From the IMG/VR virus record IMGVR_UViG_3300034062_006395, positions 53,228-73,227 of that record: a stretch of DNA of 20,000 bases. One strand, given 5' to 3'. Under the pieces are notes generated by a model that worked only from the letters and a program-made list of their open reading frames with translations, was not told the DNA's origin and did not search any database. This document shows, one piece after another, positions 1 to 19,573 of this stretch. The DNA is from an uncultured virus (IMG/VR IMGVR_UViG_3300034062_006395) (lineage: Duplodnaviria; Heunggongvirae; Uroviricota; Caudoviricetes). Position 1 is the stretch's first letter; the number at the start of each line of letters is the position of its first letter. The position numbers and the translations under genes were made by a program.

Positions 1-1500
1 AAGTGGACGACCAACTTTCATTGCTGAATCAAATACAATTTCATCGATATTTTTATTCTCCATAAAATCATTTAACTTTCTTAATTTAGCGAACATTGGA
101 TTGCTTAATAACTCTTTAGTTAAAACGATTGAAGAGTATTTTAACATCACAGGCATTGCAACGTTATCTTTAGATAAAACTTCATAATGTGCAGGTTTCA
201 TTACGTTTCCTACATTATATGAATCCCCGTACATTACAGCTAATTGATTAGCTCTTTTTTCAGTCATGAAACCTTGCCCATCTGTCATGTCATAACCTTT
301 ATCTGAATATTGTTTTAATAATTGTTGAGCTATTAATTTAACTTGTACTTGAGTTTTTTCATCTAATGTTTTTAATGTTAATCCTTTTTTACCAGTTAAC
401 ATTTCAAGTGTGAATTCTTCAACACTATCTAATAATGGCTTACCATCTTTTTCTGCATACTTTGGAAATGTTCTATCTTCTAATGTAACAACATTGAATG
501 TTCTATATTTAGTATAGTCACCACGTTCACCAGGTGCAAATGCACCAGATAAACGTTTACCAACATCTTCTGCATTTTTAAAGTATGCGTAATCACCAAC
601 TACTAATTGACCTAAGAAATAACTATTCAAATAATCATTGATAAAAAATAATTGTATAAACTCTCTTAAGTTTTCTTTATCAATCTTATATTGTTTTTCT
701 TTGTTTCTAAATTCATAATTAGTTGTAACTGAACTTTTTGATTTTAAAAACCCATTTTCATGTAACTTGTTAATTAATTGATTAACTCTTTTATCAATTG
801 GTAATTCATCATCTTCTATTTTATCAAGAAGTTTTTCACCTTCTTTTAGCAAGTCTTCATAAACATTTTCAACAAGTTTATCTAATTTCTTTTCTGAAAG
901 ACTATTAGCAAATACAATATCTTTATAAGGTCTTAATATTTCAGCATTCACTAAAGATTCTACATTATAACCTGCTGCATTAACATTTTCTGGTCTTGCT
1001 CTTAGTTGAAGTATTAAATTTTTAATGGCTTGCTTTTGTTCTTTTTCATTTAATAGACCAACTTCCATACCTTGTGTAGTTGGTTTATTTGAAACTGTAT
1101 ATAAGAACTGAGCATATCTAAAGGTTTTTCTTGACATTAATTCATCAATGAAACCACCATTTAGATGTCTATCTAACCAGTCAGTATCTTTTTCATTTCT
1201 ATAAACAATAACATTATCTCTTGATTTAGTTCCTTCAAAATCAAGATACTGATATATTGTATTTAAAGGATAGTTACCAATAAATATATTATGTTTATAA
1301 AAATCTGTTGTTAAATAATCAGGTGTTTTACTTGTCTTTTTATTACCAACAAGTTTAGTATAAACATCAAATGCATGAGATGAATATCTATGCAAATAGA
1401 TCTTTTTACCATCAACAGTTATTGCAGAAGTTGCACGTACATACTTAACGTTATTAGAAAGAAATGCTGAAAGTTCAGATAAAAATCTTGATTCATTTTC
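1..1500 (-). other. N-terminal (beta-like) part of crAss-type two-barrel virion RNA polymerase; right boundary approximate
   Basis: GDYAYFKNAEDVGKRLSGAFAPG (GD...KR at 553-597), MTDGQGFMT (TDGQG at 271-285), MKP, LKYS and FDSAMKVG (10-33) resemble motifs I recall from crAss-like RNAPs, and the position after the tail/cargo genes matches. The catalytic DxDxD motif was not seen in the window. Confidence 0.78.
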
Positions 1501-4500
1501 TAATATTTCTGGCATATCTTTAGTTATTTTACTATTGATATTATCTTCAGAAACATTATCTTTAACTTCTTTATCATCTCTTATAGAACCTAATCTTTCT
1601 CCAAAATAAAATATATCAGTTAATAAAGCATTAAATTCACCACCTTTAGAATCAATAATTCTATCTTCAACAAGCATTGAAGATAATCCTAAATGTGCAA
1701 TTATTTCTTTAAATGTTTTAAGTTTTAATTCATAAGTTTCACCCATTGACTTCTTTTTTTCTGCAATGAATTTACTTGCTTTAATTCTTGATTCTTCAGT
1801 GGAAAACTTTTTATTTAAAACATCTTTTACTTTAGTTTTAACTTGTTCATTTGTATCTACAATTCTACTATTACGTAGAACACCGTTGTATGTATTTCCA
1901 GTAGTTGATTTTTCATAATACTTTAATCTCAATTCACGTAATGAATTATATAAAGTAACTATTTCAGAAAACATATTTCTATAATATGCTCTTCTCCATT
2001 GATTTACTAAAGTAGTTCTAAATTCAACATTTGATAAATTAAATGTTTCAGATTCTGCAAATGTTATATCACGTAAAAACAAAGCATAGTTTGTAACTTC
2101 TTTAGATTTAGACGTATAAGCATTATACGAATAAACTCTTGTGCCATCTAATGCTTCAACTTCACTTTCTGTTTTACCAGTTAAATCATATTTATTATTA
2201 AAATAAAATTTAATATCTTGGTTACGTGTTGTAACTAACATATGAGGATGTTGTTCAACCTCATTTTCTTTTTCAATTTCAATTAAATTTGTACCAATTA
2301 AATTCATTAATTGAGTATTTCCATTTACACGTACATTTTCAATAATAGATTTTCTAAAATTATCTAAATCAATATTGTCCATTAAAGAGATTGTAATTGC
2401 AAATACAGTTCTTGGATCTTTACCTGTAATAGATAATAAGAAATCTTTTACTGCATCTGAAAGTTTAGTTTCTTTATTAATGTATATATCATCTTTAATT
2501 TCATTTAAGATACCAGTAGGATCTTCTTCTTTACTAATAGCTTCTAAAGTTGAATCATCATATGTATATTCATAACCTATTTTTTTAGAAGACATATTTC
2601 CAACATAAGTTGGAAATAATTCTGAAATTATTTCATTAAATATTTTAGTTTTATTATTATTGTCTGTTGATAATAACTTATTAATTACATCAAGTTCAAA
2701 TTGTTCTTCAGATGATAAATTTGTTTTTTCAGACAGTTCTTTTTGTTCTCTTATTAATTCAGATTTGTAAAAAAGAATAGCTTCTTTTTTAGGAAGTATC
2801 AAATAATAAGAGATTCTTTTACCATCAGGTTTATAAAATTTAACACCAACATTGTTATCTCCAGTAACATCGTCATAATTACGTGAATAAATATCATTAA
2901 AAAATTGTAATGATTTATTTTTAATTGCCCTGTACATTTCAACAGAGCCGTAATCATTTTTAATATCTAATGCTGTTCTTTCTGTTAAAAAGAATTCTCC
3001 ACCAGTTCTGTATGCATATATACCAGTTTCTATTTGGTCAAAGAATTTCTCAATATTTTTTACATTAGTTTTATAAAGACCTAATAAATTTAAAAGTCTA
3101 TTGAATAGATTTTTAAGAGAATATATAATTCCACTTTCATTTCTATTTTTAGTATATACTTGAAACTTCTCAGCTAAGAACTCTTCCATTTCAATATAGT
3201 TCATTTGCTTAGTTTCAGGATACTGCTTATTAAGTTGTTCAGTTAATTGATTACGTTCTTGTGGTGTTAAATGATAATTCCAAATTTTATGGAAAATCTC
3301 ATGACGTAAAATATTTTCATGAACACTTAGTTTAGTACCATCCATGATCTTTTCAACATAGACAGTACCATTTTTCATTAAACCAATAACATCATTCTTT
3401 TTGAAATTAATTAAAGAAGACATTACATGTCGAGTAACAAATTTTAAATCATTATCTTTAAGTTTAGGAAATAATCTTTTAGCTATTTTATAAGCTTCTT
3501 CTTCTGTTATAACAGTTCCTAAGAATGTATTTCTATCTTCAGTTAAAAGTTTTTTACCTTGAGTATCCTCAAAATACATATCAATTTCTTCAATAAGATT
3601 CTCTTTAGAATTACTTTTAAAAGTTACCGGTTGAGAATCTTTATTTAAGAATGTAACTGAGAACTCTCCGTTATTTTCTATAATACTATTGATTGCTTCA
3701 TTATATGTTGAAGGTTGATTTGCAACAGGTTGATCTGTAATTATAGGTTCAACTATTGGTTTTGCCGATGGTTGACTTGAAGGTTTAACTTCTTCTGGTT
3801 TAGACGTAACACTTATCTTAGTTGGTAAAACTCTATCAAAATAAGTTTCAACCATTGGAGCTAATTCAGCTTCTACGTTTTTATTTATATTTAAAGAATC
3901 ATCAAATAAAGTTTTTCCTTTTTCATTAAACGCTGCACGGTTAATAGGTAAACGTAAATAGCTACCTCCTCTTAAAGAACTAATACCGTTAGAATCAAAT
4001 TGGAAAGCTGATTTAAGAACATCTAATGAAAGAACTCCGCTATGAGCAATTCTATTCTCATTCAATTGTTCAGGTGTAAATAAAGGACTTGCTTCAGTAC
4101 TAAAAACTTCAGTAGTAAATACTTTTTCAAGATATTTAATATCATCCTGAATAGTTTTAACCATCTGTTGAGCTTCTAATTGTTGTTGTGGATTTCCAGA
4201 ACCTTTAAGTCTATAATATCTTTCAAGACCCATGTAAACAAATTCAATAGGTTTACCATCTCTTTGTAAATCATATCTTCTGGCTAATGATTTTAAAAAG
4301 GTATAATAACTTTTAGTATAACCAAATATTTCAAATTCATCTGTACTTTTTCCTACTAATGGTTTTCCTTTAATGTTAACACGATCTTTATTTTTTTCTT
4401 TATATCTTGTAATTAAAGATAAATGAGAAGTGTTAAAAATATTAGGATCTTCTGCTACTCTATTTTTAGTATGATGTGAATTTGCTTTAGCAATTTTATT

Positions 4501-7500
4501 AAGTGCTTTAGATGCTTCTCCTTGATTTATTTTTATAACAGGATGATATTTTATTTTACCATCAACACCTTTACCTATGAGTTTATGATATTTACTGTTT
4601 TTACTTTTAATAAGATCGTAATCATTTTTTAATTCTTCAGAAGCTTCATATTCTTCTTCAGTAACAGTTTGCTTCTCATGTTCAACACCATATACAAGTA
4701 AGAACAGTTCAGTCCACAAATCTTGATTTGGATCTTTTACAATGTCTTTAGTTTTTTCAATTTGATATGATTGACTAATTGTAAAATTATCTTTGAATGA
4801 TTCTAATTTTTCTCTAAACTCTTTAGTACTTAATTTTAAACCACTTGCTGCTTCAAGTTTTTCAACAACATCAATAAATTTTAATATAGGTTTAACAACA
4901 TCATCTCCTTTTTTAAGTCTTCTTGCATTTAAACGTATAGCTTGTGGCTTATAACCTGGAGTTTCAAATATTAAATAAGGAATACCTGATTTTAATTGTA
5001 AATCAGAAGCATTAACATTGTTTGGTAATATCTGATTGTTTGCTGGTATCCACATATAGATTTTTCCAACTGAAGGTTTTAACCCTGCCTTAATGAAATA
5101 ACCTTTTACAAATTGATTAACAATATCAGAAATATTAGGATTTTCAACTCTTTTATTTTTATTATATATATAAGTCAAAGGTCTTGCAATATTTACTTTA
5201 CCTTCTAATATAACATTAGACATATCTGATGAAGGTATCGTGAATACACCAGCATCTGAAAAAATTTCATCTTTTAATCTTACTGATTTTGCGTTATTAT
5301 ATTTTTCAAGTAATTGTTTACCAAAATCAGTTTTAAATTCTTCTTCACTAACAATACCAATCAAAGCCCATTTATCTTCAGTATCACGAACTTTAGCTAA
5401 AACTAAAAGTTGAGATTTTTTTTCGTATTTAGCTTTAACATATATAACATCGTTCCCAGTTTTAACTAAAGGGTTTCCTTTATTATCGTATATTTTATTT
5501 TTAGTTGGAAAAGCTAAAACATGCTCATGGTCAAATAGATCAACTTTAACTGGTAGATCTGGATCGTTTCCATTATCAATAACATCACTATCTAAACTTT
5601 GACCTTTTAGTGTTGCACCATCATCAGTAGTATCATCTTCAAAATCATCATCAGTATCAAAAAATTCATCCTCATCTTTTATTACAACATTTTCTACTGT
5701 GTCTTTTATATCCTCTGGTTTTACTTCAGATGCAGGTTTACTATCTTGTTTAATTTTTACAACAATACCTTTAGCATCAGGTACAAAAGATTTAAATATT
5801 TGATTATCTAATAACAACTGACCGTAGAATCTTTCTTCATTTTGAACCTTCATTTCTTCTGATTCAGTAGATGTAACAGCAATCTTTGGATTAACGTGGT
5901 GATCTATTTTTTGTCCATTACGTTTAATTACAACGTGATTTTTTGCACGACTAATAGAAGTGTACATTGCTGTATTAAAAGTATAAGTATCAAAAGATTG
6001 ATTGAAACTATTTTTTTCAGCTTCATTCAAATCTATAAATACTTCATCAAACGTTTGTCCTTGAACTTCTTCATAAGTCATCACTTGAGTTTTATCATCA
6101 ATAAGAGATTTATATTTATCTTTTGATTGTTGATTATTAACTATGATTACTTTATTAGCTGAAGAAGAATTTTTAATAATATCACCAAAATCATTTACAA
6201 CGTGAACACCTTGAGCATTCGTATTTCCAAGTGAAGTATTAGCTTCAAATGTAGCATCTTGTACTTTATTATAATTTGAACGAAATACATCGGCTGCATT
6301 ATTAATTGAAGATACATCTGAACGATAAGGAACACTTAAAGCATTTAAGTGTGTTATATTAACATATTCTTTTTTAAATTCAATTTCTGGAAATTGAGAT
6401 TCTGTTATTTGTGTCGGATCACCAGTTAATAAAAAAGTTATATTTTTTGATTTAAGTTTAGCTAATTCTTGAAATGCTTCTGGTTTTTGAGATAAATTAA
6501 TTGCATTAGCTTCATCTATGATAATTAAATATTTTTTTTCAGGATCAAAATTATATGTTTTTATATCTTCAAGTTTAATTCCTTTTGTATTATCACCATG
6601 AATTGATTGACTGATATTCTTAGTTGCGTTTTCAGTAGCAGCGGTTACAATAACTTCATCGATTTTTCCCTGCATTTTTAAAATATCAGAAATCCATTTA
6701 GAAGCAATTGTAGATTTACCTGTACCTGCTATACCTTTTAAATAAGCGAAGTTTCCAAATTCAACAGATTTGTTTTGTGAATCAAAGAATTTTAAAAATT
6801 GATTAATTACAATTTCTTGTTGTATTCCAGGAGTCAATACTATTGATTTATCATTTTCTTCTTTTAGCTCATTATATTTAGCATCTAATGATAATAATAA
6901 ATCATTGATATTAAAATCAGAAGTTATTTGTTTGTAAGCTTCTAATGTACTTATATAATCTAAAATAGTATTTGTTATTTCTAAGATTGTATCTTTTTCA
7001 AATTTATATGAAGATTCGTCTTTATAATTCTTTAAAGCTTCTAAAAATGAATATGGATCATTATCTTTAAGAAATACAAAGTATGGATGTGATTTATCAT
7101 TCTTAGCTTCTACTTGAACTAAGTTAAATAAACCAACATCATTAATAAATTTATTTAATGTAGTAGTACCGTTTCCTTTGTTAATTTCAAATGATTCAGA
7201 AAGAACACCTTCAATAAAAGTTATTTTAGCTTTAAGTATTTCTTCAATTTCTTTTTTACTATCCTTAGATAATTGCTGAAGTTTATATAAAATAATTTCA
7301 CCATATATAGGATTCAAAGGATCTGGTGAATCTTTATAATCAACTGCATTTTCAGCTTCTTTTAATATTTTATTTAATTCTTCTTTACCTAATACTTTTT
7401 CTATAGCATTGAATAAAGTTGAATGTTGTTGAGGTTCAAGAAAATCAATATCCAAAGATCTATATATTCTTAAAGCTTTAGCTGCTCTAAATTTCTTTTG

Positions 7501-10422
7501 TTTAATTAAACGATCTTCTTTATTTTTTATAGCAACTTGAAATAGTAATTCTAATTTAACTAAATCTTCTTTTATTTGTTTTACAACTGGAGCAATATGT
7601 TTATTTTTTGTAATACCATCTTTTTCCCAAACATCTAATAGAGCATTTAAAACATTAATTAAATTATTAATTTTTTGGTAATCACTGTAATCACTGTTTT
7701 CTATATCTTGACCAGCTTCAGTAAAAATTATATCAGCTTCTTTACGAATTTTACGACCATAGGCAGCTCTTGAAAATTCTAAACTATTTTTATAATTTCT
7801 AAATGTATTTTTTTTACGATTTGATTCTTTACTTAAATTAAAAACTTCTTCATAAGTATCTGCAATTTTTTTATCAATATTTTTTAAATTATCTATCTCA
7901 TCAAGTATTTGCATATATTCTTGACTGAATTCTTCTACTTTATCTATTTTAGCATCTAAGTCATCTATTTTTTGTTGGTTTAAAACCCTTGCTTCATCAA
8001 GAAATTTAAAAACTTTATCTCTTGTTGCAGCATCAAAGTTATAAACACCATCTGTTGTTTCAATTTTTGCATTACGAACAATATCTAATACTTCGTCTAA
8101 AGATATTTTACCTTCTTTATAATTGTCAAAAGCATTATTTAAAGAAGCTTTACCAATATGATCTTTACCTATTCTGAAATAATGTTCATTAAGAAATGAT
8201 TCACTATCATTAACACGTTCAATTTCATTTCTACCTACATCAAGTATTGGTCTTTTATATTGATACACTATTGGGTTAAATTCTATACCGTGAACAAAAC
8301 CAGCTTCTTGTTGTCTGATTATTTTTTCATTCTCAAGTAGAACAAGTTCATCATTAAGTTTTTGTTTTACAGATTCTTCAGTAGCAGTTTTAATTTCTTC
8401 TTTTTTAGAATCTATTTTAGTTTCTATATCTTCAAATGTTGGAACTTTTGTTTTCTCATTAAGTTCTTTAATTTTTGATGGATTAGTCAGAAGATCAAAA
8501 TTGTTATTAGAATCTTCTAACATTTTATTTAAAGCTTCATTTGTATTATCAATATCTTTTAAAGCAGCAGCATCAACTTGAGGTATGCCAGAAAGATTAT
8601 CTTTCCTTGCTTCGTTTTCTTGAATTAATCTTTTAATGCTGTCTTGTCTTACAGCTTCTCCGTATTGAGCTTTCAGAATCTTTTCTTGTAATGAAGCATC
8701 AATATTCTTCAGTTCTGGATTTTGCTTTGCAGACTCTTTAATACCTTTAAATAAATTAAAGAATCTATCTACTTGTTCTAATCTTTTATTTAGAATATCA
8801 GATGCTTCTGGTTGAGATTTTTTTAATTCTTCAGCATGAAGCTTCATAGTGCTTTTTAAAACATCTAAACCTTCTTCACCATATACACTGTCAAGACCAA
8901 ACATACCTAATGCGTAACGAGCTGCAATCAAGTCTGTGAGTATTTCAAAACCTACTGCATCGTTTCTATTTGCTAAATCAAGTTGTTCATCATATAATGA
9001 TTTTGTAGTCATTATTTGAAAACCTAATTTAGATAAAGCTTCTTGATTTATTTCTGGTTTGTTATTTGCATCACGAATGATTTCTCCTTGTTTATCAAGT
9101 TTATAAATAGTAGAAACATTTGATTTAAATACAGCATCAGAATAGTTAATTATTTTTTCAAGAGAACCTAATTGTTCTTGTTCTTGTTTAGTTTGACGAA
9201 CAGCGCCAACTGTTGACATACCAGAACCTAGTAGAGCACCTAAGAAGATAGATGTCTGACCATCAGTTTTTCCAAAGTTAGTTACTAAGCTTCCAACATA
9301 ATCTCCAAGCCAATCGTTATATTCACCAAGCATTACTTTATCTTGGGTAGCATATCTTTTTTGAGCTTCTTGAATACCAAACTGAATGTTTTCTTCATAA
9401 CCACCTTCAACAGCAGCACCTTTTAAAACATTCTTTCCTAAGTTTTTAGAAAGACTTGGTGCAAACTGAGCTAATTTAGTTTTATCAAGTTTACCATCAA
9501 CAATAGAATTTCTAATTATTTTTTTAGTATCTGCTAATGAACCAAATACCATCTTAGCTTCCCATAGATTAGAAGCAGCTAATGCAGCCATGTTTGATAT
9601 TGAAGTATTAAATGCAGCACGTACTGCATCTTCTTCAGAAACACCTTTAGAAATTAAATCATCATAAATATCTTTACCTTCAAATCCAGACTCACTAATT
9701 GTATTATATAATGTAATAGCACCTAAATCAATTTGATTAGCTAATTTAGAAACATCTCTGACAGATTGTCCAAGAGCTGCTGCATTATCAACGCTTTGTA
9801 TTCCAAGTTTAGAATCAATCAAAGCTTTATTTAATCCTCTAATGTTATTAGCTAAACCTTTTCCAAGACCAGCTTTACCAATAAGACCAGCTTTGCTTGC
9901 AAGACCAGCAGGTACAAAAGCAGAAGCAGCAAAAGCAACACCATCTAAAAAATCAGAACCCCAAAATTCAGCAGTACCTATTTTATCAAAGAAGTTACCA
10001 TTACTGTACAATTTAGTTTTATATATTGGATCAACACCAAAGCTCAACCAGCTACTTTCGTTCTTTAATTGATCATCCATTTCTTTTAAAAAACGAACCA
10101 TTTGATTATCAAACCAAAGTTTTTCATCACCTGTTACAGAAGCACCAATAGCACCACCAACGTGAGCAAGACCTTCACCAAATTTTAAAACAACATCTTG
10201 ACCTAAACGTGCAGCACCACGCCAGAATTTACCACCTTGAGCTTGTGCTCTAAGTTCATCAACATCTTCATAACCGAATATAGGATCTTGAATATAATCA
10301 CGATAATTAGAATCATAATTACCAGCACCTATTGAATTTTTACTTGCTGATTTTCCTGTACGAAAAGCTAAATCTGGGCGAATTGGTTTTCCTTCTAAAT
10401 GTGTTATTGGGTCTAAACTCAT
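1..10422 (-). CDS. Giant virion cargo polyprotein (>3474 aa, 3' end outside the window): N-terminal hydrophobic region + SF1 helicase + zincin metallopeptidase + crAss-type virion RNA polymerase (partial)
   Basis: ATG at 10422-10420, 2 nt after the TAA of the upstream gene (MSLDPITHLEGKPIRPDLAF...). The same frame is coding wherever checked (about 9400, 6700, 5950, 3300, 600 and 1-60, ending ...IDEIVFDSAMKVGRPL). The ORF track lists no stop-terminated ORF in this frame, which fits an ORF open to the edge. Motifs read directly: GIAGTGKST, IIIDEA, GDPTQ, YRS, QGQTFD, MYTSISRA, HEIFH...MEEFLAE, GDYAYFK...KR, TDGQGF, SAMKVG. Confidence 0.92.
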   Translation of the reverse strand, partial: MSLDPITHLEGKPIRPDLAFRTGKSASKNSIGAGNYDSNYRDYIQDPIFGYEDVDELRAQAQGGKFWRGAARLGQDVVLKFGEGLAHVGGAIGASVTGDEKLWFDNQMVRFLKEMDDQLKNESSWLSFGVDPIYKTKLYSNGNFFDKIGTAEFWGSDFLDGVAFAASAFVPAGLASKAGLIGKAGLGKGLANNIRGLNKALIDSKLGIQSVDNAAALGQSVRDVSKLANQIDLGAITLYNTISESGFEGKDIYDDLISKGVSEEDAVRAAFNTSISNMAALAASNLWEAKMVFGSLADTKKIIRNSIVDGKLDKTKLAQFAPSLSKNLGKNVLKGAAVEGGYEENIQFGIQEAQKRYATQDKVMLGEYNDWLGDYVGSLVTNFGKTDGQTSIFLGALLGSGMSTVGAVRQTKQEQEQLGSLEKIINYSDAVFKSNVSTIYKLDKQGEIIRDANNKPEINQEALSKLGFQIMTTKSLYDEQLDLANRNDAVGFEILTDLIAARYALGMFGLDSVYGEEGLDVLKSTMKLHAEELKKSQPEASDILNKRLEQVDRFFNLFKGIKESAKQNPELKNIDASLQEKILKAQYGEAVRQDSIKRLIQENEARKDNLSGIPQVDAAALKDIDNTNEALNKMLEDSNNNFDLLTNPSKIKELNEKTKVPTFEDIETKIDSKKEEIKTATEESVKQKLNDELVLLENEKIIRQQEAGFVHGIEFNPIVYQYKRPILDVGRNEIERVNDSESFLNEHYFRIGKDHIGKASLNNAFDNYKEGKISLDEVLDIVRNAKIETTDGVYNFDAATRDKVFKFLDEARVLNQQKIDDLDAKIDKVEEFSQEYMQILDEIDNLKNIDKKIADTYEEVFNLSKESNRKKNTFRNYKNSLEFSRAAYGRKIRKEADIIFTEAGQDIENSDYSDYQKINNLINVLNALLDVWEKDGITKNKHIAPVVKQIKEDLVKLELLFQVAIKNKEDRLIKQKKFRAAKALRIYRSLDIDFLEPQQHSTLFNAIEKVLGKEELNKILKEAENAVDYKDSPDPLNPIYGEIILYKLQQLSKDSKKEIEEILKAKITFIEGVLSESFEINKGNGTTTLNKFINDVGLFNLVQVEAKNDKSHPYFVFLKDNDPYSFLEALKNYKDESSYKFEKDTILEITNTILDYISTLEAYKQITSDFNINDLLLSLDAKYNELKEENDKSIVLTPGIQQEIVINQFLKFFDSQNKSVEFGNFAYLKGIAGTGKSTIASKWISDILKMQGKIDEVIVTAATENATKNISQSIHGDNTKGIKLEDIKTYNFDPEKKYLIIIDEANAINLSQKPEAFQELAKLKSKNITFLLTGDPTQITESQFPEIEFKKEYVNITHLNALSVPYRSDVSSINNAADVFRSNYNKVQDATFEANTSLGNTNAQGVHVVNDFGDIIKNSSSANKVIIVNNQQSKDKYKSLIDDKTQVMTYEEVQGQTFDEVFIDLNEAEKNSFNQSFDTYTFNTAMYTSISRAKNHVVIKRNGQKIDHHVNPKIAVTSTESEEMKVQNEERFYGQLLLDNQIFKSFVPDAKGIVVKIKQDSKPASEVKPEDIKDTVENVVIKDEDEFFDTDDDFEDDTTDDGATLKGQSLDSDVIDNGNDPDLPVKVDLFDHEHVLAFPTKNKIYDNKGNPLVKTGNDVIYVKAKYEKKSQLLVLAKVRDTEDKWALIGIVSEEEFKTDFGKQLLEKYNNAKSVRLKDEIFSDAGVFTIPSSDMSNVILEGKVNIARPLTYIYNKNKRVENPNISDIVNQFVKGYFIKAGLKPSVGKIYMWIPANNQILPNNVNASDLQLKSGIPYLIFETPGYKPQAIRLNARRLKKGDDVVKPILKFIDVVEKLEAASGLKLSTKEFREKLESFKDNFTISQSYQIEKTKDIVKDPNQDLWTELFLLVYGVEHEKQTVTEEEYEASEELKNDYDLIKSKNSKYHKLIGKGVDGKIKYHPVIKINQGEASKALNKIAKANSHHTKNRVAEDPNIFNTSHLSLITRYKEKNKDRVNIKGKPLVGKSTDEFEIFGYTKSYYTFLKSLARRYDLQRDGKPIEFVYMGLERYYRLKGSGNPQQQLEAQQMVKTIQDDIKYLEKVFTTEVFSTEASPLFTPEQLNENRIAHSGVLSLDVLKSAFQFDSNGISSLRGGSYLRLPINRAAFNEKGKTLFDDSLNINKNVEAELAPMVETYFDRVLPTKISVTSKPEEVKPSSQPSAKPIVEPIITDQPVANQPSTYNEAINSIIENNGEFSVTFLNKDSQPVTFKSNSKENLIEEIDMYFEDTQGKKLLTEDRNTFLGTVITEEEAYKIAKRLFPKLKDNDLKFVTRHVMSSLINFKKNDVIGLMKNGTVYVEKIMDGTKLSVHENILRHEIFHKIWNYHLTPQERNQLTEQLNKQYPETKQMNYIEMEEFLAEKFQVYTKNRNESGIIYSLKNLFNRLLNLLGLYKTNVKNIEKFFDQIETGIYAYRTGGEFFLTERTALDIKNDYGSVEMYRAIKNKSLQFFNDIYSRNYDDVTGDNNVGVKFYKPDGKRISYYLILPKKEAILFYKSELIREQKELSEKTNLSSEEQFELDVINKLLSTDNNNKTKIFNEIISELFPTYVGNMSSKKIGYEYTYDDSTLEAISKEEDPTGILNEIKDDIYINKETKLSDAVKDFLLSITGKDPRTVFAITISLMDNIDLDNFRKSIIENVRVNGNTQLMNLIGTNLIEIEKENEVEQHPHMLVTTRNQDIKFYFNNKYDLTGKTESEVEALDGTRVYSYNAYTSKSKEVTNYALFLRDITFAESETFNLSNVEFRTTLVNQWRRAYYRNMFSEIVTLYNSLRELRLKYYEKSTTGNTYNGVLRNSRIVDTNEQVKTKVKDVLNKKFSTEESRIKASKFIAEKKKSMGETYELKLKTFKEIIAHLGLSSMLVEDRIIDSKGGEFNALLTDIFYFGERLGSIRDDKEVKDNVSEDNINSKITKDMPEILENESRFLSELSAFLSNNVKYVRATSAITVDGKKIYLHRYSSHAFDVYTKLVGNKKTSKTPDYLTTDFYKHNIFIGNYPLNTIYQYLDFEGTKSRDNVIVYRNEKDTDWLDRHLNGGFIDELMSRKTFRYAQFLYTVSNKPTTQGMEVGLLNEKEQKQAIKNLILQLRARPENVNAAGYNVESLVNAEILRPYKDIVFANSLSEKKLDKLVENVYEDLLKEGEKLLDKIEDDELPIDKRVNQLINKLHENGFLKSKSSVTTNYEFRNKEKQYKIDKENLREFIQLFFINDYLNSYFLGQLVVGDYAYFKNAEDVGKRLSGAFAPGERGDYTKYRTFNVVTLEDRTFPKYAEKDGKPLLDSVEEFTLEMLTGKKGLTLKTLDEKTQVQVKLIAQQLLKQYSDKGYDMTDGQGFMTEKRANQLAVMYGDSYNVGNVMKPAHYEVLSKDNVAMPVMLKYSSIVLTKELLSNPMFAKLRKLNDFMENKNIDEIVFDSAMKVGRPL
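3070..3500 (-). other. Zincin-like metallopeptidase domain within the giant ORF (boundaries approximate)
   Basis: ILRHEIFHKIW (HExxH at 3289-3303) followed by MEEFLAEKF (MEEFLAE at 3169-3189) and an amphipathic helix LKNLFNRLLNLLG. This pattern is typical of zincins found with crAss RNAP and phage polyvalent proteins. Confidence 0.85.
5941..6840 (-). other. Superfamily 1 (RecD/Dda/Pif1-like) helicase domain within the giant ORF
   Basis: Walker A GIAGTGKST (6709-6735), Walker B IIIDEA (6508-6525), motif III GDPTQ (6409-6423), motif IV YRS (6319-6327), motif V QGQTFD (6046-6063) and motif VI MYTSISRAK (5941-5967), all in frame and in canonical order. Confidence 0.9.
9865..9909. repeat. Short in-frame 18-bp-period repeat (AAGACCAGC x3) encoding AGLASK-AGLIGK-AGLGK
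   Basis: AAGACCAGC occurs at 9865, 9883 and 9901, within the Gly-rich N-terminal region of the giant ORF. Confidence 0.6.
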
Positions 10423-10424
10423 CT

Positions 10425-12977
10425 TTATTTTGTTTGTTGTGTGTTGCTAATTTGATTTTTAAGTTCTTGTATGTTATAAACTAATCCAGAAATAATTCTT
10501 TTCTCTGTTTCGTTTTCAGCAGCTAATGGTATCAATGTACCAGTCTGTAAATACTTTTCGTATAATCCTCTTAAAAAGTCATTGTTCTCTATTTGACCTA
10601 CTAATTTACTTGCTAATTCAGGATCACTTGCTGCAATTTCTTGTAAATCCATTCTTAAATTTTCAGAGGTGTATTGAGTACCATCTTGATTTGTTAATAC
10701 GTTTACAGGTCTAACTCCGTTTTGTCCTCTGATTTTTTCTGTTTTAAATGATAAACCTGAATTATATAAATCTGTACCAGATGCTCCAGTATCTCCTGTA
10801 GCTCCTCTATACATCTCTTCAAGAACTTGTTCTCCAGCTTCACCCAAGTGAGATAAGATAAATACTGTAGCACCATTAGGATCAAAATTAATTGGTAATT
10901 TTAAATCAACCCAATTCATTTTAGTATCATCTCCTTCTTTAGTTTCAAATTCAAGTTTTAAAAATACTTCATTGGTAGCATTATCTAATTTAACATTGTC
11001 AACTACCATGTTACCTTTAACATTTAAATTGTTTGTTAATACGTTTCTAAGTACTTCTTTATTTTTATCATTAGAACCAGTTCTTGTTAATTCTTCTTTT
11101 CCATTTTCTCCAACTTGTCTATGAACTGTAACGTTAAATTCACCTGCATTTATTACACGTTTTAAATTTTCAGTAAAAGAAGTCATTTGTCCACTCGACA
11201 TATTTACAGGAACATAACCTGTTGCTTTAGTTTCAAAAGATTTTAAATAATTTGTAAATTCATTATCATATTCTTTTTTATTATTTTCATATTCTTTATA
11301 ACCTTGAGAATTAAATAACGCATTACCTTCTTTTAATTTTTCGTATTGATCTTTTTCTATAATTTTTTTATTTTTAATAGCATTTACTTTACTATTACTA
11401 CTTGGATAATATTCGTAATCTCCAGTTTTTTCATTATAAATTATAGAAGCTTTTGTCATTGGATGGCTTGCTTTAACACCATTAACATCACGTGTAATTA
11501 CTTCAGTCGGTATTTCATCAGTTGATTCAATTTCTAATGGTAATTCAGATGATTTCATTATTGTAGCATGAACATATGCATCTGATTTAGTAATTTGTGT
11601 AATTTTACTCAAAGCTGAATTCTTTGCACCTTTCTGAGCAGCATTTTCAATTTGAGTATTTACAATCCAGTTATCAGGATTAAATATACCACCAGGAAAC
11701 GGATAGATATTTTCAACATCAGCTCCTTGTGAATTATTTAATTCCTTTGTTGCTATTTTTAAATCATCGTTTACTTTTTCAACATAATTTAAAACTTCTT
11801 TTTCTTCATCAGCAAGTGATGTTTCATAATCAAATAATTTAGTTGCTAATTCTGCACCTTTGGCACTTTTACCATCAGCGTTTGTTATAAATGCACCTTC
11901 TGCTTTTTCAAGAATTGCTATGTTGTTTTTAGCTTCTACTTTTTGTTGTTCTGAAGAAGTTTCACTTTCTAATATTTTTCTACTTTCTTCAATAGCTTGA
12001 TTATAATTTACATATTTGTCAAGTAAATTTAATGGTTGTCCAGCTTCTGGAGTTTGAACGTAACCACCTTTAAATGGTGGATTGCTTCCATTACCGTTAC
12101 TTCCTTCATCGTTAGGATCACGATGAATACTTGTTTTTAAATCTGTATCATAAAAAGTTGCGGCAGTAACACCACCAGAAATCATTGACTCAATATTTTG
12201 TGCAGCTTGTTCTCCTAAACCATGATAACTCATTGCTTTATAATAATCCTGAATTTCTGGATCACCATAAATTGTTTGTGCAATTGCTGCGTAAGCTTTA
12301 TCTTTTGACACATAAGTTTGCTTACCATCTTGTGTCATTAACCATTGATTATTAGATTTATCAAATTGAACAACACCTCCATCAAACTGTATTGGCGAAC
12401 CATCAGCTTTAATATTATCTGCGATTCTATTTATCTTTTCAGATATATCAGGTGTTTTAAATAAATAAGGAGATTCAAAGTTTGTTACATAATCACCTCT
12501 TTCATTTCTTAGTTGATTACCATAAGGTTGAACTTTACTTAAATAAGTATTATAAGCAATTCTTGCTTCTTCTGGATTTGTTTTAGAAAACTCTTCTATA
12601 GTTTTTAGATAGCTATCATGTTGTGCTTTACGTTGAGACAATGCCCAAATATCACCAGATGATGCATCTCGTTTGTATTTACCTCTTATTTGATAAAAGT
12701 TTTTTAAAGCTCCTTGAATGTTATCATTGTTAATCAAATCATCAGCAGCTGTATTTAATTGATTCATATAGTCATCTCTAATCTTTTGTCCTGTTTGTTG
12801 ATCATAGTTCATAAAATCAACTCTTGGATCAAATTCTGAAAGATACTGTAAAGTATTATCAAATGCTTGTTGTCTTGTCGCTAAAGCTTGTAAAGCTACA
12901 TTCGCATCAATTTGTGTTGGTACAAATTGAGACATGTAACTATTAGGTCTATATTGTTCAAATCTATTGCGTGGCAT
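10425..12977 (-). CDS. Probable virion cargo/ejection protein (850 aa), function unknown
   Basis: Long ORF 3 nt from the upstream stop and 2 nt from the next start. It has a helical N-terminal half and lies between the cargo-1-like gene and the RNAP polyprotein, where crAss-like phages encode internal virion proteins. No catalytic motif recognised. Confidence 0.65.
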   Translation of the reverse strand: MPRNRFEQYRPNSYMSQFVPTQIDANVALQALATRQQAFDNTLQYLSEFDPRVDFMNYDQQTGQKIRDDYMNQLNTAADDLINNDNIQGALKNFYQIRGKYKRDASSGDIWALSQRKAQHDSYLKTIEEFSKTNPEEARIAYNTYLSKVQPYGNQLRNERGDYVTNFESPYLFKTPDISEKINRIADNIKADGSPIQFDGGVVQFDKSNNQWLMTQDGKQTYVSKDKAYAAIAQTIYGDPEIQDYYKAMSYHGLGEQAAQNIESMISGGVTAATFYDTDLKTSIHRDPNDEGSNGNGSNPPFKGGYVQTPEAGQPLNLLDKYVNYNQAIEESRKILESETSSEQQKVEAKNNIAILEKAEGAFITNADGKSAKGAELATKLFDYETSLADEEKEVLNYVEKVNDDLKIATKELNNSQGADVENIYPFPGGIFNPDNWIVNTQIENAAQKGAKNSALSKITQITKSDAYVHATIMKSSELPLEIESTDEIPTEVITRDVNGVKASHPMTKASIIYNEKTGDYEYYPSSNSKVNAIKNKKIIEKDQYEKLKEGNALFNSQGYKEYENNKKEYDNEFTNYLKSFETKATGYVPVNMSSGQMTSFTENLKRVINAGEFNVTVHRQVGENGKEELTRTGSNDKNKEVLRNVLTNNLNVKGNMVVDNVKLDNATNEVFLKLEFETKEGDDTKMNWVDLKLPINFDPNGATVFILSHLGEAGEQVLEEMYRGATGDTGASGTDLYNSGLSFKTEKIRGQNGVRPVNVLTNQDGTQYTSENLRMDLQEIAASDPELASKLVGQIENNDFLRGLYEKYLQTGTLIPLAAENETEKRIISGLVYNIQELKNQISNTQQTK

Positions 12978-14747: not shown

Positions 14748-17700
14748 TTATGTTAGAAAATAACTTAGAATATCATGAGCTATAAATCTCTTATTGTCGT
14801 TATTGTTAAAAGTTAGTTCAGTGAATATCCATGGATTTCTAATCCTCGCTTGGTTCGTTGAATTATTATCTCGTTGTATAGCATGCCTCCATGTGCGAAA
14901 CCTACGTCTAATTGTACTTGGACTTGTAAGTACGACCAGTCCTGTGTCCTGATGTTCATTAGTAATTCGTATAGAGTTAAATGTTTCATCGTATATGTCA
15001 TTAGAGGTTCCGTCATAACATTCAGAATTAAATTCTAAATTAGTCCATATCTTAGTTACATGCGACTGACCATTTGTAACTACTTTAATAGTTGACACAT
15101 CTGGTGCAGCATCGTAGAAAACACCATACTCACCTTCATCATGTTGGTAAACTTTTCCACGTTTATCTGTTTGAGAATCTACTGATAACAACTTTCTACC
15201 TGTTGATAAATAAAGAACAGGTTCAAAAGAATAAAAAGATTCAAAACAATCAAATAGTTCATTGAACGAAAACGTTGCATTTTTATACGGTGGTCTATCT
15301 TCATCATCAAATGGACCATTTTCTGTATTACGTATTGTAAACAAAACTCTATTATATCTATGTTCGTAAGCTCCATGTACTGAATATGGAAGTAATGAAG
15401 TTTGTTTATCTTTAGATTCTAAAGGAGTATGCTTTAAATATTCATCTAAATAAGATGATAAACCTTTTATATCTGACAATGGATTTGGAGAATTATCAAA
15501 TTTAAATACTTTCTTCAATCTTGTATCTAAATGATAAATAGCTTTATCAGATGGCACAACAGCAGATGTTTGAGATACACCTGTGTGTGTTGATATATAA
15601 ACATAATCATTTAATACATCACCTGTACCAATAGTTATTTCAGAACCGTTTTCATTACCAATAGCTACACGTTGATTTACAGAAGCTAAACCAAAGGCTT
15701 TTTCTTGGTAGAATAATAACTTATCGTTAAACGTTTCAAGTCGATTAATCTCTCCGTGAATACCATCTACGTCAATTTTATTATTAGTTAAAAACTTAGT
15801 CCATGAATCTGTAAACTCCCCATTGAATTTCTTTTCAGATGCCCACATTGTATATGGTTGTTCATCTACTGGGTCTGCTAAAAAGTCCTTCGCAAAGAAT
15901 TGTTTTTTAACATTATTCTCTTGTGTATATACAGGATTTAAAACATAATTCTGTAAAGTATATTGTATATTATCATTAGCAAATTCAGAATACAATCTTT
16001 TATCTGAAGGTGATGTTGAATTATATGCTAAATATGTATTAATATCTGTTTCAACTGGGAAGACTGTTATATAACAATACTCAGTATCAGACGTTGATGT
16101 TAATCCATTTAATGTAATTATAGACTCATAATCAAAATAAGTAATGTAAGTATCACCTCCGTAAACTCTAAAAGTAGAAGATTGATTAGTATTAGCAAAA
16201 TGATTAGTACTAATGTACCTTTGTTTTGATCTACTTTCATAAGAATTTCCTCCGTATTGATTTATTAAATCTCTACAATATGATGCATAGTTAACATGAA
16301 TAACTCCACTACCAGTAAAAGGATAGTCTTGGTCTAAGCCAAACCAAGTTTTTAAATTACTTGAATGAGTTAATCCATCTAATTGCATTCCGTTATTTCT
16401 TATATTATAAGAACCTGCAACTCCTAAAGTGTTTAATACATCACCTTGTTCAATATTATATATTGAATGGAATCTTCCAAGAGTATTTAATTTTAATTGA
16501 TCTGATGGATTAGACGTATAACCAAGAATTTTACTTATTTGTATATGTCTAAATGATGTAGAAGATGCTGCAGCAATTAATATTCTTGTACCTGGATATA
16601 CTGCACTATATCTTGCAATACCTATATGCTTTAAATAATCTCCGTTCTTATAAGACCAGTCAGAAGAATTTGATGAAAACAATGTAGTTGGTGAAACAAA
16701 TCCTACAATATTTTTTTGTGGATAAGTTGATTCAGTACCATAAGGTAACTTTGGTTCCATATAACCAGAATCTTCTGTACAGTGATGTATAATACCACCG
16801 CCAAATCTTGATTTATCATTAGCTAAGCGAGGTGCTCTAACAATAGAATATCCAGATATTTTATCTTCTAACGCAGAAGGTATAATAACTTCAAATTGTA
16901 AACCAAGTACATTAGCTTGTAGTTTATCTGAAGTACTTCCATATCCATTGTTAGTAATACCATTTGTATAATGATGTGAACCTGTTCCAAATGTTGCTGT
17001 GTTAAATGGTGGCATTTTAATATCTGCAATCCATTTAGCAAAAGAAGGTTGTCCTTTTTTATTGTAAAACACAATAGCAAATCGATATATCTCTTCTCGC
17101 ATGTATCCACCATACCATGTGTGTACAAATGGAGATTTATATGAATCAAATTGGTTTATAGCTTCTTGTGTTTCTGATGTACCAAAATCTTCTTGTAATG
17201 TAGTTCTGGCAATCGTGCCAACCATTGGTGTATCGTTACCTGAGTTATATACACTGTTTCCTCTATCATTGAGTAATACTTTCTTAGAAGTAAATGAGAA
17301 TTTAATATATTTACCTTCTCCTCCATGTGTTACTCCATCAGATTGATAAACATATAAATCATCAAATAATGAATTACTTTCATTATAGTTTCTTGGACAA
17401 ATAGCATCGTGTGTATAACTTAATTGAAAATCTGGAGATGTAACTGTATTAGCATTACCTGCTTTATCATATACAATTGTTGAACCAGAATTGTTTTTAA
17501 AACAATAAGCTCTTGAATCAAATTCTTCATCAGTTATTTCAAACTTTTGATTTCTTAAATTACCAATAATTAATCGATTATCTTTAGAAGTTATTGTTTT
17601 ACATATATTTATTTCAGAACCTAGACTGTTAAGTTCTTGTTCTGTTAATGATTGAAGTTCTTCATCATTTGTAAAAGTAACTGTTAAAGACCCATTAGAT

Positions 17701-18833
17701 GGTATATTTTCTTCCTTGAATATATATATCTGCGGAGCATTCTCAAATTCATATATGATTGCTATATGTTGTATAACATCATAGTCTGTATCTATATCAT
17801 CAATTTTATAAGTTATTGATTTTGCAAGACCTGCTCCTTGTGCATTTCCAGCTAATGTTTCAAAATCATCTGTAAATGGATTTTTTTCGTATAATGGAAT
17901 TAAATCTGATAATGGAGAAACAATAGTTTCTTTACCACCAGAGATTAATCTATAACCAACTTGAACGACAGATGCGTATGGAATACCACCTCCATCATCA
18001 ATAGATACTAATAGAGGCTTTGAGAAGTCTACTGTTGGACTTAATTCCATATCAGAAGGTAATATATCAAATCCTTCTGGATCGTATAAATTAAAGCTTC
18101 TAATAGGGTTATAATTATCAGTCCAATAAACTCTTGCTATTTTAGAATTTTCATATCTAACAACAGAACCAGTTATTGCATTTTCAGTAGACAGGTTTAA
18201 TTTACCATTATATTTTAAATGAACAGACGGAATTAAACATCCGTTAGCATCTAAGTTTGTAATTTCATTTAAATCTTCATCATATGTTACATACCATATT
18301 TGACCATCTGATGCTGTTGGATTTTCTTCACTTGATGAAGTTGTAAATAATATAATATTATCATTTAAATGATTCCATCCAATTATCTTAAGATCCTGTA
18401 AAGCAGTAACAACTACTTCGGTTGTTGGATTATTCTCAGTTAAATCAAGATTATCAATACCTACGATAAGAACATAATCGTCATGAAGATATAATTGAAA
18501 TTCATTATCAGATATAAACTGTTGTATATTAACATCGTTGTTTATCTGATTGTATATATCGATTATAGAGCTTCCAGCAGCAATAGGAAATGTAATACCA
18601 TTGATTGTTAAAAAGGTATTAACATCTGGAGATATGATTTTAAATATACCTTGTGTATCTGGAATACAGAAATCAAGCTTATTTCCTTTTTCATTAACTA
18701 AGGCTCCTGTTGAAGAGCCTTTATCAGTTACGATTTTAAAGTTTAAAGCATGAAAATAACTATCTTGTCCACGTTTAATATGTGACAAGTCTTGATTTAT
18801 ACCTTTGTTAAATGTATTTCCAGTAACAGCCAT
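14748..18833 (-). CDS. Tail stabilization / muzzle protein (P22 gp10-like, crAss-type), 1361 aa
   Basis: N-terminal NTFNKGINQD, YWTDNYNPIR, GYMREEIYRFAIVFYNKKG...WIADIKMP, YGGDTYITYFDY and C-terminal FESFYSF resemble crAss muzzle proteins. Size and position after the ring protein also fit. The start overlaps the upstream stop (TAATG). Confidence 0.85.
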   Translation of the reverse strand: MAVTGNTFNKGINQDLSHIKRGQDSYFHALNFKIVTDKGSSTGALVNEKGNKLDFCIPDTQGIFKIISPDVNTFLTINGITFPIAAGSSIIDIYNQINNDVNIQQFISDNEFQLYLHDDYVLIVGIDNLDLTENNPTTEVVVTALQDLKIIGWNHLNDNIILFTTSSSEENPTASDGQIWYVTYDEDLNEITNLDANGCLIPSVHLKYNGKLNLSTENAITGSVVRYENSKIARVYWTDNYNPIRSFNLYDPEGFDILPSDMELSPTVDFSKPLLVSIDDGGGIPYASVVQVGYRLISGGKETIVSPLSDLIPLYEKNPFTDDFETLAGNAQGAGLAKSITYKIDDIDTDYDVIQHIAIIYEFENAPQIYIFKEENIPSNGSLTVTFTNDEELQSLTEQELNSLGSEINICKTITSKDNRLIIGNLRNQKFEITDEEFDSRAYCFKNNSGSTIVYDKAGNANTVTSPDFQLSYTHDAICPRNYNESNSLFDDLYVYQSDGVTHGGEGKYIKFSFTSKKVLLNDRGNSVYNSGNDTPMVGTIARTTLQEDFGTSETQEAINQFDSYKSPFVHTWYGGYMREEIYRFAIVFYNKKGQPSFAKWIADIKMPPFNTATFGTGSHHYTNGITNNGYGSTSDKLQANVLGLQFEVIIPSALEDKISGYSIVRAPRLANDKSRFGGGIIHHCTEDSGYMEPKLPYGTESTYPQKNIVGFVSPTTLFSSNSSDWSYKNGDYLKHIGIARYSAVYPGTRILIAAASSTSFRHIQISKILGYTSNPSDQLKLNTLGRFHSIYNIEQGDVLNTLGVAGSYNIRNNGMQLDGLTHSSNLKTWFGLDQDYPFTGSGVIHVNYASYCRDLINQYGGNSYESRSKQRYISTNHFANTNQSSTFRVYGGDTYITYFDYESIITLNGLTSTSDTEYCYITVFPVETDINTYLAYNSTSPSDKRLYSEFANDNIQYTLQNYVLNPVYTQENNVKKQFFAKDFLADPVDEQPYTMWASEKKFNGEFTDSWTKFLTNNKIDVDGIHGEINRLETFNDKLLFYQEKAFGLASVNQRVAIGNENGSEITIGTGDVLNDYVYISTHTGVSQTSAVVPSDKAIYHLDTRLKKVFKFDNSPNPLSDIKGLSSYLDEYLKHTPLESKDKQTSLLPYSVHGAYEHRYNRVLFTIRNTENGPFDDEDRPPYKNATFSFNELFDCFESFYSFEPVLYLSTGRKLLSVDSQTDKRGKVYQHDEGEYGVFYDAAPDVSTIKVVTNGQSHVTKIWTNLEFNSECYDGTSNDIYDETFNSIRITNEHQDTGLVVLTSPSTIRRRFRTWRHAIQRDNNSTNQARIRNPWIFTELTFNNNDNKRFIAHDILSYFLT

Positions 18834-19573
18834 TATGTATTATCTCCTTGATTAAAGTTATTTGTATTATGATTGATTCTATTTTGTTGCTCTCCTCTTG
18901 ATTTAAACTGAGTAGCATGTTCATTAATCTTTGGAATCAATCTTAATGTCATGTTTTTCCAAGATTCTAATTGATCTTTAGTCAATCGTTTAGTTCTGGT
19001 GATGGCTTTTCCCATGTACCAGTCTTTTTCTTTATTGATAAACTGTAGTTTCTTATCTGACAGTCTATCATTTAACCATAGTTTATAAGCTATTCTATAA
19101 GCTACATACCATTCAAGTGCTTCAACAAAAGCTTCATCATCAGGTACTAATGGAAATCCTCTATCATCTACAGGAAATGCAGTATATGATAAAAGAACTT
19201 CACCTTCATCAAATGATGTATAAATATAATTATTGTTTAATTTATATGTTATATCACATGATGAAGAAAGATTTGGACATTCTGAACAATGAAGATTTAT
19301 AAAGAAAGGATCACCAGTATATCTCATTGGAAGACTATTTGACTTCTCTTTGAACATATCTATCTGAAGTAAATCAGAAGGTAATTCACCACGATAATTT
19401 TCGATAGTAATACATTCAACTTTCTGAATGTATATTTCAGGTGCACTCATTAATTTAAGTGCTTTACCAATCCACTCAAGAGCGTCTGTCCATTCAAAAT
19501 CATTTTGGAAACCGTGATTCATATACACGTTTTCAATGATTCTATCTACTGGTATGTATTTAGTTGTTAACAT
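18833..19573 (-). CDS. Tail tubular / ring protein (P22 gp4-like, crAss-type), 246 aa
   Basis: EWIGKALKL...IENYRGELPSDL...YIYTSFDEGEVLLSYTAFPVDDRGFPLVPD...ALEWY is characteristic of crAss tail tubular proteins. It lies between the IHF-like and muzzle genes. Confidence 0.82.
   Translation of the reverse strand: MLTTKYIPVDRIIENVYMNHGFQNDFEWTDALEWIGKALKLMSAPEIYIQKVECITIENYRGELPSDLLQIDMFKEKSNSLPMRYTGDPFFINLHCSECPNLSSSCDITYKLNNNYIYTSFDEGEVLLSYTAFPVDDRGFPLVPDDEAFVEALEWYVAYRIAYKLWLNDRLSDKKLQFINKEKDWYMGKAITRTKRLTKDQLESWKNMTLRLIPKINEHATQFKSRGEQQNRINHNTNNFNQGDNT

Follow-up and report, generated by a model that had tools for sequence, protein, structure and literature searches.

A minimal SF1 ATPase domain carried ahead of the RNA polymerase in a crAss-type polyprotein

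The locus described here bears on two questions about crAss-type virion RNA polymerases: how they gain access to duplex DNA, and what switches them on once they have been ejected. By itself, gp66 of phage phi14:2 is described as having poor activity on duplex templates; the protein is an injected RNA polymerase (10.1101/2020.03.07.982082), and it crystallises in a self-inhibited form whose activation is left unexplained. The locus lies in a record of an uncultured virus (IMG/VR IMGVR_UViG_3300034062_006395), a linear sequence of 73,227 bases with an estimated completeness of 77%. The window, that is, the whole stretch of DNA analysed, is the last 20 kb of that record (20,000 nucleotides, positions 53,228 to 73,227). 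On its minus strand the window encodes the first part of a 6,105-amino-acid (aa) chain in which the initial annotation had recognised an intact, compact superfamily 1 (SF1) helicase. We find that the domain is a tandem-RecA SF1 ATPase with an intact ATP site, reduced accessory parts, a position within a gp67-like unit and clade-wide retention. The domain and its motifs, named by established SF1 nomenclature, map as follows in window coordinates:

5920-6840 (-), aa ~1195-1500: minimal SF1 ATPase domain, RecA-like domains 1A and 2A only (Pfam, PHROG, model and motifs)
6811-6831 (-): Q motif (motif position)
6709-6735 (-), aa 1230-1238: motif I (Walker A), GIAGTGKST, with K in 30/30 distinct relatives
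6613-6645 (-): motif Ia (motif position)
6562-6582 (-): motif Ib (motif position)
6508-6525 (-), aa 1300-1305: motif II (Walker B), IIIDEA, ~20 aa past motif Ib
6409-6423 (-): motif III, GDPTQ (motif position)
6319-6339 (-): motif IV, YRS, with R1367
6058-6078 (-), aa 1449-1455: motif V, TYEEVQG, ~21 aa past motif IVa
5944-5964 (-): motif VI, YTSISRA, with the arginine finger R1492, R in 30/30 relatives

Motifs Q, I, II, III, IV, V and VI are all present with their catalytic residues. Motifs I to VI cover 264 aa, and 87 aa separate motif IV (R1367) from motif V (Q1454), values that agree with the ~265 aa and ~85 aa read from the sequence in the initial annotation. In Pfam, a 327-aa domain query matched Viral_helicase1 (E 6.9e-13, residues 48-318; 49.4 bits vs. 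a cut-off of 21, both domains covered), AAA_30 (E 7.9e-10) and AAA_19 (E 1.3e-9), the first two being families that the annotation had proposed for a search; Viral_helicase1 is matched by 26 of 45 aligned members. The PHROG Dda-like helicase family matched with E 2.8e-17. The AlphaFold model of the domain (predicted local distance difference test, pLDDT, 88.7; predicted template modelling score, pTM, 0.83) consists of two RecA-like domains in tandem, the fold that the annotation had called for. Among 48,161 chains, the top fold match is T4 Dda (3UPU; Z 22.4, root-mean-square deviation 3.4, 269 aligned residues), followed by Deep-Sea Helicase 9 (8JX6; Z 21.7) and Leptospirillum Dda (9KWF; Z 19.3), with SLFN11, Rep, RecD2, Upf1, Pif1 and HelD at Z 16-19. 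Among viral folds the best match is BFVD A0A8S5RTY8, a large protein named 'RecD-like protein' from a phage with genetic code 4; it may be a Zeta-group chain. We conclude that the domain has the SF1 core.

The residues of the ATP site are kept in all 30 distinct domains obtained by a search that started from the polymerase (described below): 30/30 have the G and K of motif I, the DE of motif II, the D and Q of motif III, the R of motif IV and the R of motif VI. For the same residues of motifs I, II, III, IV and VI, a 140-row alignment, from which P0006 was dropped and in which six stand-alone helicases were included, gives 131/131, 135/135, 137/137, 135/138 and 129/130. Two loci, L029 and L042, carry a ~283-aa intein-like insert within Walker A, with Cys at its start and His-Asn-Thr at its end; these inserts precede the polymerase motif by ~2,700-2,400 codons.

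The accessory parts are reduced. The spacing from motif IV to motif V is 87-111 aa in the SF1 family (n = 129; 88-112 aa for n = 30) vs. ~220 aa in T4 Dda and ~240 aa in cr50_1, and in the model one helix separates the IVa and V strands. The n = 129 count, and the Thr/Ser percentages given below, come from an alignment that included one RecD2 (P0137), which later counts exclude. From this spacing it follows that the SH3-like 2B domain, which lies between motifs IV and V in the Dda/RecD2/Pif1 group, is missing throughout the family; the annotation had remarked on how little room was left for it, and the model contains none. The 1B pin that follows motif Ib in that group is absent as well: the distance from motif Ib to motif II is 16-27 aa in the 26 family rows and 28-42 aa in 17 of the 19 others (one has 24 aa, one 89 aa), and hhalign places a 15-residue gap in the domain opposite T4 Dda residues 87-101, which form the pin.

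The nucleic-acid face is altered too, in that the single-stranded DNA (ssDNA)-binding residues of motif Ib (T-x-H-S) and motif V (T-x-H-K) typical of the Dda/RecD2/Pif1 group are not found. At the motif V position of the DNA-binding Lys of Dda/RecD/Pif1-type enzymes this protein has Glu, and the family has D/E in 25/30 domains and K/R in 0/30, whereas K is present in 23/23 stand-alone matches with a readable motif (of 25) and K/R in 19/19 tree outgroup rows; P0004 and P0026 are rare family members that retain K. Motifs Ia and Ib are highly variable across the family; in place of the Thr of motif Ib, this protein carries Lys. The backbone-binding Thr/Ser of motifs Ib and V are retained in 67% and 72% of the family, respectively, which weighs against a complete loss of strand binding, as does the fact that helicases of positive-strand RNA (+RNA) viruses align over the whole domain with no gap. 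In BsPif1, DNA is contacted by T66, H68, S69, T359, H361 and K362, and substitution K362A is described as reducing unwinding 200-600-fold (PMC4824106); unwinding by BsPif1 is also described as requiring movement of 2B. Judged from sequence and model, the domain is more reduced than the initial annotation had seen, the 1B pin being gone besides 2B/SH3. With its SF1 core it would work most like an SF1B motor, yet it lacks three features that mark membership of the Dda/RecD2/Pif1 group. The annotation's SF1 motor is thus upheld in fold and ATP site, and a plain unwinder of duplex DNA is made less plausible by the missing pin and the altered Ia, Ib and V contacts.

Which part of the virion polymerase chain carries the domain follows from three further features:

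1-10422 (-): polyprotein, first 3,474 codons (full chain 6,105 aa; 63649->45332 of the record, G000)
8335-10332 (-): N-terminal gp67/gp47-homologous region (phi14:2 gp67, phmmer E 1.9e-30; tblastn E 1e-23)
1-678 (-): start of the RNA polymerase part (tblastn vs. crAss001 gp50, E 9e-11, aa 3249-3719)

The 6,105-aa chain comprises, in order, gp67-like cargo, zincin, RNA polymerase, zincin, PD-(D/E)xK and a gp65-like end. Residues 31-696 are the part that phmmer matches to phi14:2 gp67, crAss001 gp47 matches the family profile with E 3e-37, and the gp67-like N-terminus has two mildly hydrophobic segments (aa 158-176 and 390-408). The polymerase part is matched by phmmer to crAss001 gp50 and phi14:2 gp66, and the DFDxD motif of crAss-type virion polymerases occurs inside this gp66/gp50-like region as DFDVD (aa 3710, ~700 bases beyond the window edge); gp66 was not recovered from PDB by a phmmer search with the polymerase region, so the link to the polymerase rests on the gp50, gp66 and gp67 matches. 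The C-terminus of the chain matches gp65 and gp49 (E 1.4e-5 and 9.2e-5). Gp67-like and gp65-like partners thus stand in order beside muzzle and ring genes, as in a crAss-type polymerase block. The homologous N-terminus, polymerase and C-terminus of phi14:2 (gp67-gp66-gp65) and crAss001 (gp47-gp50-gp49) have the same order; in those phages, unlike here, the blocks consist of separate proteins and contain no helicase, and fused forms of gp67/gp66/gp65 are known from the literature (10.1101/2020.03.07.982082). The SF1 domain is placed in the gp67-like cargo part, 2,200 residues ahead of the polymerase motif. The initial annotation was therefore right to place a virion RNA polymerase in the same chain; its DFDVD motif lies outside the window, and the domain belongs to the cargo part. 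Virion detection by tandem mass spectrometry is marked in the phi14:2 record for gp65, gp66 and gp67, and from homology with phi14:2 and crAss001 we infer that the SF1 domain would be packaged and injected.

The domain is retained across a broad set of relatives. Among proteins of 3,357-10,684 aa, 20 of 1,568 candidates matched (query included), with the polymerase motif in 20/20, and among 50%-identity representatives there were 122 matches, six of them stand-alone helicases (P0137-P0141, P0143). Of the 135 family rows, 55 also contain the polymerase motif, 35 are at least 2,000 aa long but do not contain it, and 45 are shorter and probably fragments; the polymerase motif is downstream of the ATPase in 54/54 fusions with coordinates (55 in all). 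An assembly or frame artefact is ruled out, since ATPase and polymerase motif share a chain in 55/135 matches. One full family member, P0020 (7,577 aa), has a moss species as its source at NCBI and is likely phage DNA in a plant assembly. A search of IMG/VR that started from the polymerase, with a codon pattern for HGSDFDVD, avoids finding only what was sought. The pattern matched 40 loci, of which one is not a polymerase and six have insufficient upstream DNA; 33/33 testable loci carry the SF1 domain, 2,060-3,230 codons upstream, in the same open frame in 24 and past a stop or in another frame in nine. These loci yield 30 distinct domains, 22 of them <56% identical to earlier matches. Because the pattern picks one clade, 33/33 is uninformative for crAss-like phages at large. 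In L026, L034 and L057, stops occur near the polymerase motif under table 11 despite a good profile match, and these are probably recoded stops or introns.

Outside this clade the picture differs by phage. The phi14:2 and crAss001 genomes contain no candidate for the domain profile anywhere; among the five records examined, the only matches in crAssphage and cr127_1 were to SF1 genes that stand alone, and Fpv3 gave one weak, short match. The cargo proteins of phi14:2, crAss001 (gp47 minus its first 43 residues), Fpv3 and crAssphage gave background scores for the domain. Searches with a single domain sequence found nothing in the named phages by tblastn (query P0082 gave three weak, unrelated matches), and nothing in IMG/VR, while metagenomes yielded a single 22% match, to a 489-aa open reading frame (ORF) that stands alone; with no useful match from these searches, no cultured carrier of the minimal form has been found. 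Shorter gp67-like proteins (query aa 31-700) numbered none among 7,999 scored candidates.

Cysteine positions bear on the split chains. The fused 6,105-aa chain and its 850- and 558-aa neighbours contain no cysteine. In a comparison that took in P0023-P0133 and L002, L003 and L006-L008, a cysteine falls within the last three residues in 24/35 long matches that do not have the polymerase motif (0.05 expected), and end cysteines occur in 25/33 two-part fusions and in 1/22 chains of at least 5,300 aa. Phi14:2 gp67, gp66 and gp65 have cysteines only at their facing ends, and the cargo proteins of crAss001, cr50_1, cr118_1 and Fpv3, together with split relatives, have nearly all of theirs at an end adjoining the following protein. 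The pattern suggests that the split forms may be complete proteins still tied to the polymerase, possibly by a head-to-tail disulfide chain.

The closest known systems are the SF1B enzymes T4 Dda, Deep-Sea Helicase 9, Leptospirillum Dda, RecD/RecD2 and Pif1, which provide the top folds and profiles and have the same ATP motifs; the domain differs from Dda, RecD2 and Pif1 in having no 1B pin and no 2B/SH3, in the change of the motif V Lys to D/E and in being embedded in a virion chain. The 25 nearest matches outside the family are mostly Dda/RecD/Pif1-like. In a tree of 45 rows, 26 from the family and none from a +RNA virus, the family forms one side of a 100/100 branch; a phylogeny against RecD2 and Dda had been envisaged in the initial annotation. 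Two Suoliviridae proteins, cr50_1 QOR58058 (4,774 aa) and cr118_1 QOR58373 (4,946 aa), combine an SF1 domain with a crAss-type DxDxD polymerase in one chain, and these polymerase chains (reached via BFVD) are labelled 'DNA helicase' in GenBank. Their helicase is C-terminal to the polymerase and full-size (motif IV to motif V ~240 aa) with a basic motif V, unlike the minimal, N-terminal domain within a gp67-like unit described here, in which the full-size, C-terminal Dda-like arrangement of the Suoliviridae is not found. A full-size SF1 domain fused elsewhere in a Suoliviridae polymerase chain indicates that the SF1-polymerase pairing recurs. In the tree, cr50_1 and cr118_1 nest among stand-alone Dda-like enzymes; a constraint placing them with the family is not rejected (approximately unbiased test, p 0.135). 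Position and size favour two separate recruitments of SF1, for which the tree gives no proof.

Viral_helicase1 is the best single Pfam match across the whole domain (Atlas feature score 0.94), and the SF1 cores of +RNA viruses (tomato mosaic virus 3VKW, porcine reproductive and respiratory syndrome virus nsp10, alphavirus nsP2) have the same compact 1A+2A layout. In +RNA virus SF1 helicases, motif V typically contains an acidic residue. An origin from +RNA viruses, raised by the Pfam and Atlas scores, was set aside, as the nearest sequences and best folds are Dda/RecD-like; the +RNA virus helicases have lower fold scores (Z 13.7-16.2) and a weak profile match (6JIM, E 0.23). Convergence in size is the simplest explanation of the resemblance.

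The domain is not without precedent in annotation. The key to Supplementary Fig. 13 of PMC7886860, from 2021, lists an SF1 helicase, a metalloprotease and a PDDEXK nuclease in the Zeta-group transcription block. With this key and the two labelled Suoliviridae chains at hand, the surprise implied by the initial annotation was overstated: SF1 domains in the crAss transcription block have been annotated before, and the N-terminal minimal form differs from the two labelled full-size examples. Literature searches, whose scope did not take in the 2018 crAss-family paper, bioRxiv supplements or File Transfer Protocol (FTP) annotations, returned no paper that addresses what a helicase domain does in crAss polymerase chains, and the word 'helicase' is absent from Bayfield 2023. 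GajB was considered as a precedent for a non-unwinding SF1 protein and dropped, as passages of PMC10781630 gave no support for it; nor was text on the pin found in PMC12143592 or PMC4716839.

What, then, may the domain do? We favour, tentatively and with somewhat less than even confidence, an injected single-strand translocase that would serve early transcription by a polymerase that is poor on duplex DNA. On this view an active, minimal SF1 ATPase would be packaged, would enter the cell as a thread together with the polymerase and would refold at its side; it would then move on a single strand at the early transcription bubble by ATP-driven inchworm movement, 5'->3' as in Dda, RecD and Pif1, and this translocation would keep the template single-stranded or strip nascent RNA from it. 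The wedge and lid would be supplied by neighbouring domains or by the polymerase, and the tracked strand may be RNA instead of DNA. As the domain itself has neither wedge nor lid, it is expected to be a weak unwinder when isolated. The retention of ATP and coupling residues in 30/30 domains together with both RecA domains supports a translocase, as do the 33/33 retention upstream of the polymerase (24 in the same frame) and the match of working +RNA virus RNA helicases of the same size to the full domain. Several facts weigh on the other side. The DNA-gripping residues of the closest solved relatives (motif V Lys, Ia, Ib) are not kept; the 2B domain that BsPif1 requires for unwinding is absent; 2,200 residues lie between the domain and the polymerase active site; many relatives have the domain in a separate protein (the 35/135 of at least 2,000 aa without the polymerase motif); and phi14:2 transcribes its early genes though it has no profile match. 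That phi14:2 and crAss001 manage without the domain is the strongest fact against a general role, and it means that neither genome entry nor early transcription universally requires the domain. Because the domain is without the DNA-gripping and DNA-splitting parts of its closest relatives, its substrate is a testable question.

The same evidence bears on other accounts. A two-domain switch that is driven by ATP, acts on protein without tracking, and frees the self-inhibited polymerase, recycles it in the manner of HelD or times the refolding or separation of cargo is possible, if unlikely. It would fit the sharp contrast between an invariant ATP site and a nucleic-acid face whose residues vary, the loss of pin and SH3, the self-inhibition of crystallised gp66 with its unexplained activation, the recovery of HelD as a fold match (Z 17.4 and 16.1) and the slightly more acidic character of the domains relative to stand-alone relatives (median -1.2 vs. 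0.0 charges/100 aa, with overlapping ranges); however, HelD scores below the Dda-type Z of 22.4, the Thr/Ser of motifs Ib and V are partly retained, equally small +RNA virus helicases still move on RNA, and the phi14:2 polymerase is activated without the domain. SF1 cores track single strands, whereas the genome is duplex, and this, with the absence of a duplex-binding accessory domain and of the domain itself from phi14:2, crAss001 and Fpv3 cargo proteins, makes quite unlikely an ejection machine in which several copies at the cytoplasmic end of a gp67-like channel pull the genome or the cargo thread with host ATP. To the credit of such a machine, the domain lies in a cargo unit that has hydrophobic N-terminal segments and is first in gene order, ~six copies of each large cargo protein fit the crAss001 capsid (PMC10172136), and a motor made of the ejected polymerase has been put forward for Schitoviridae and suggested in passing for crAss-like phages (PMC11445570).

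An injected enzyme of host takeover or counter-defence, which would clear host proteins or guide-RNA R-loops or feed the PD-(D/E)xK nuclease in a RecBD-like manner, is improbable: the PD-(D/E)xK motif (aa 5112) and two HExxH motifs share the chain and the closest stand-alone relatives are Dda/RecD-like, but the nuclease motif is missing from the chain in most 4,200-5,200-aa fusions and in all split forms, and 33/33 retention resembles core machinery more than a swappable defence module. We consider it very improbable that a Dda-like replication or recombination helicase has moved into a late cargo gene and acts unpackaged late in infection; in crAssphage and its relatives the cargo genes contain no SF1 and the replication block has a stand-alone one, and this genome (77% complete) has no second match to the domain, but the parts that Dda uses for unwinding are missing, the domain does not group with stand-alone crAss SF1s in the free tree, and its gene belongs to the late structural block. 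That the domain is a decaying relic, or a structural spacer that does not act as an ATPase, as the reduced anatomy and the absence from cultured models might suggest, is scarcely credible given catalytic residues kept in 30/30 domains that are mostly 27-55% identical to earlier matches and have no stops.

The remaining features of the window are as follows:

3289-3303 (-), aa 2374-2378: HEIFH, a zincin-type HExxH motif (motif search)
3808-5520 (-), aa ~1635-2205: conserved region, fold unassigned (conservation across 89 long relatives)
14748-18833 (-): crassvirus muzzle protein (Pfam crAss_MUZ, E 7.2e-152)
18833-19573 (-): crassvirus tail ring protein (Pfam CrAss_Ring_1, E 9.2e-54)
10425-12977 (-): 850-aa protein, with the position and approximate size of crAss001 cargo gp45 (size from PMC10172136)
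12981-14657 (-): 558-aa protein, with the position and approximate size of cargo gp46

The conserved region at aa ~1635-2205 sits after an acidic linker and closes the gp67-like unit; it matched no Pfam family and gave no usable Atlas match, and it is a candidate replacement for the absent lid or wedge. Directly past the acidic linker, a beta-rich conserved stretch (window 5320-5520 (-), aa ~1635-1700) may resemble a HIRAN or SH3-type barrel and could replace the absent 2B domain. The 850-aa protein has no match among 12 proteins from the cargo blocks of four other phages, a set that did not include crAss001 gp45, and the 558-aa protein has a single weak 31-aa match to Fpv3 gp30 (E 0.0016). 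Beyond the window, the polyprotein has its second HExxH motif at aa 4708 and its PD-(D/E)xK motif at aa 5112, and the gp65-like end (aa 4700-6105; G000 C1 45332-49550 (-)) has a hydrophobic segment at 5977-5995. A run of ORFs at G000 C1 19857-30528 (+), also outside the window, has N-termini that, by their motifs, may resemble an amidoligase, a gamma-glutamylcyclotransferase and two class II glutamine amidotransferases, a combination found in phiEco32-type peptide-modifying clusters.

The importance of the domain is limited by the earlier annotation of SF1 in the gene block, by cultured models that do not have the domain and by the fact that no cultured carrier was found. Within these limits, it provides a discrete, well-folded, 300-residue handle on crAss-type polymerase access and activation, fixed across a broad clade and open to a one-residue knock-out, and a natural test of how an SF1 core behaves once the pin, the SH3 domain and the lysine that normally grips DNA are gone. 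A bolder reading, which we regard as unlikely, is that the domain represents a distinct minimal SF1 ATPase class, fixed in an environmental crAss-like clade, that has given up Dda-type unwinding and would act as a virion-delivered motor of the entry machine, pulling genome or cargo or unlocking the polymerase; if true, SF1 would have been recruited into the crAss cargo chain a second time, independently.

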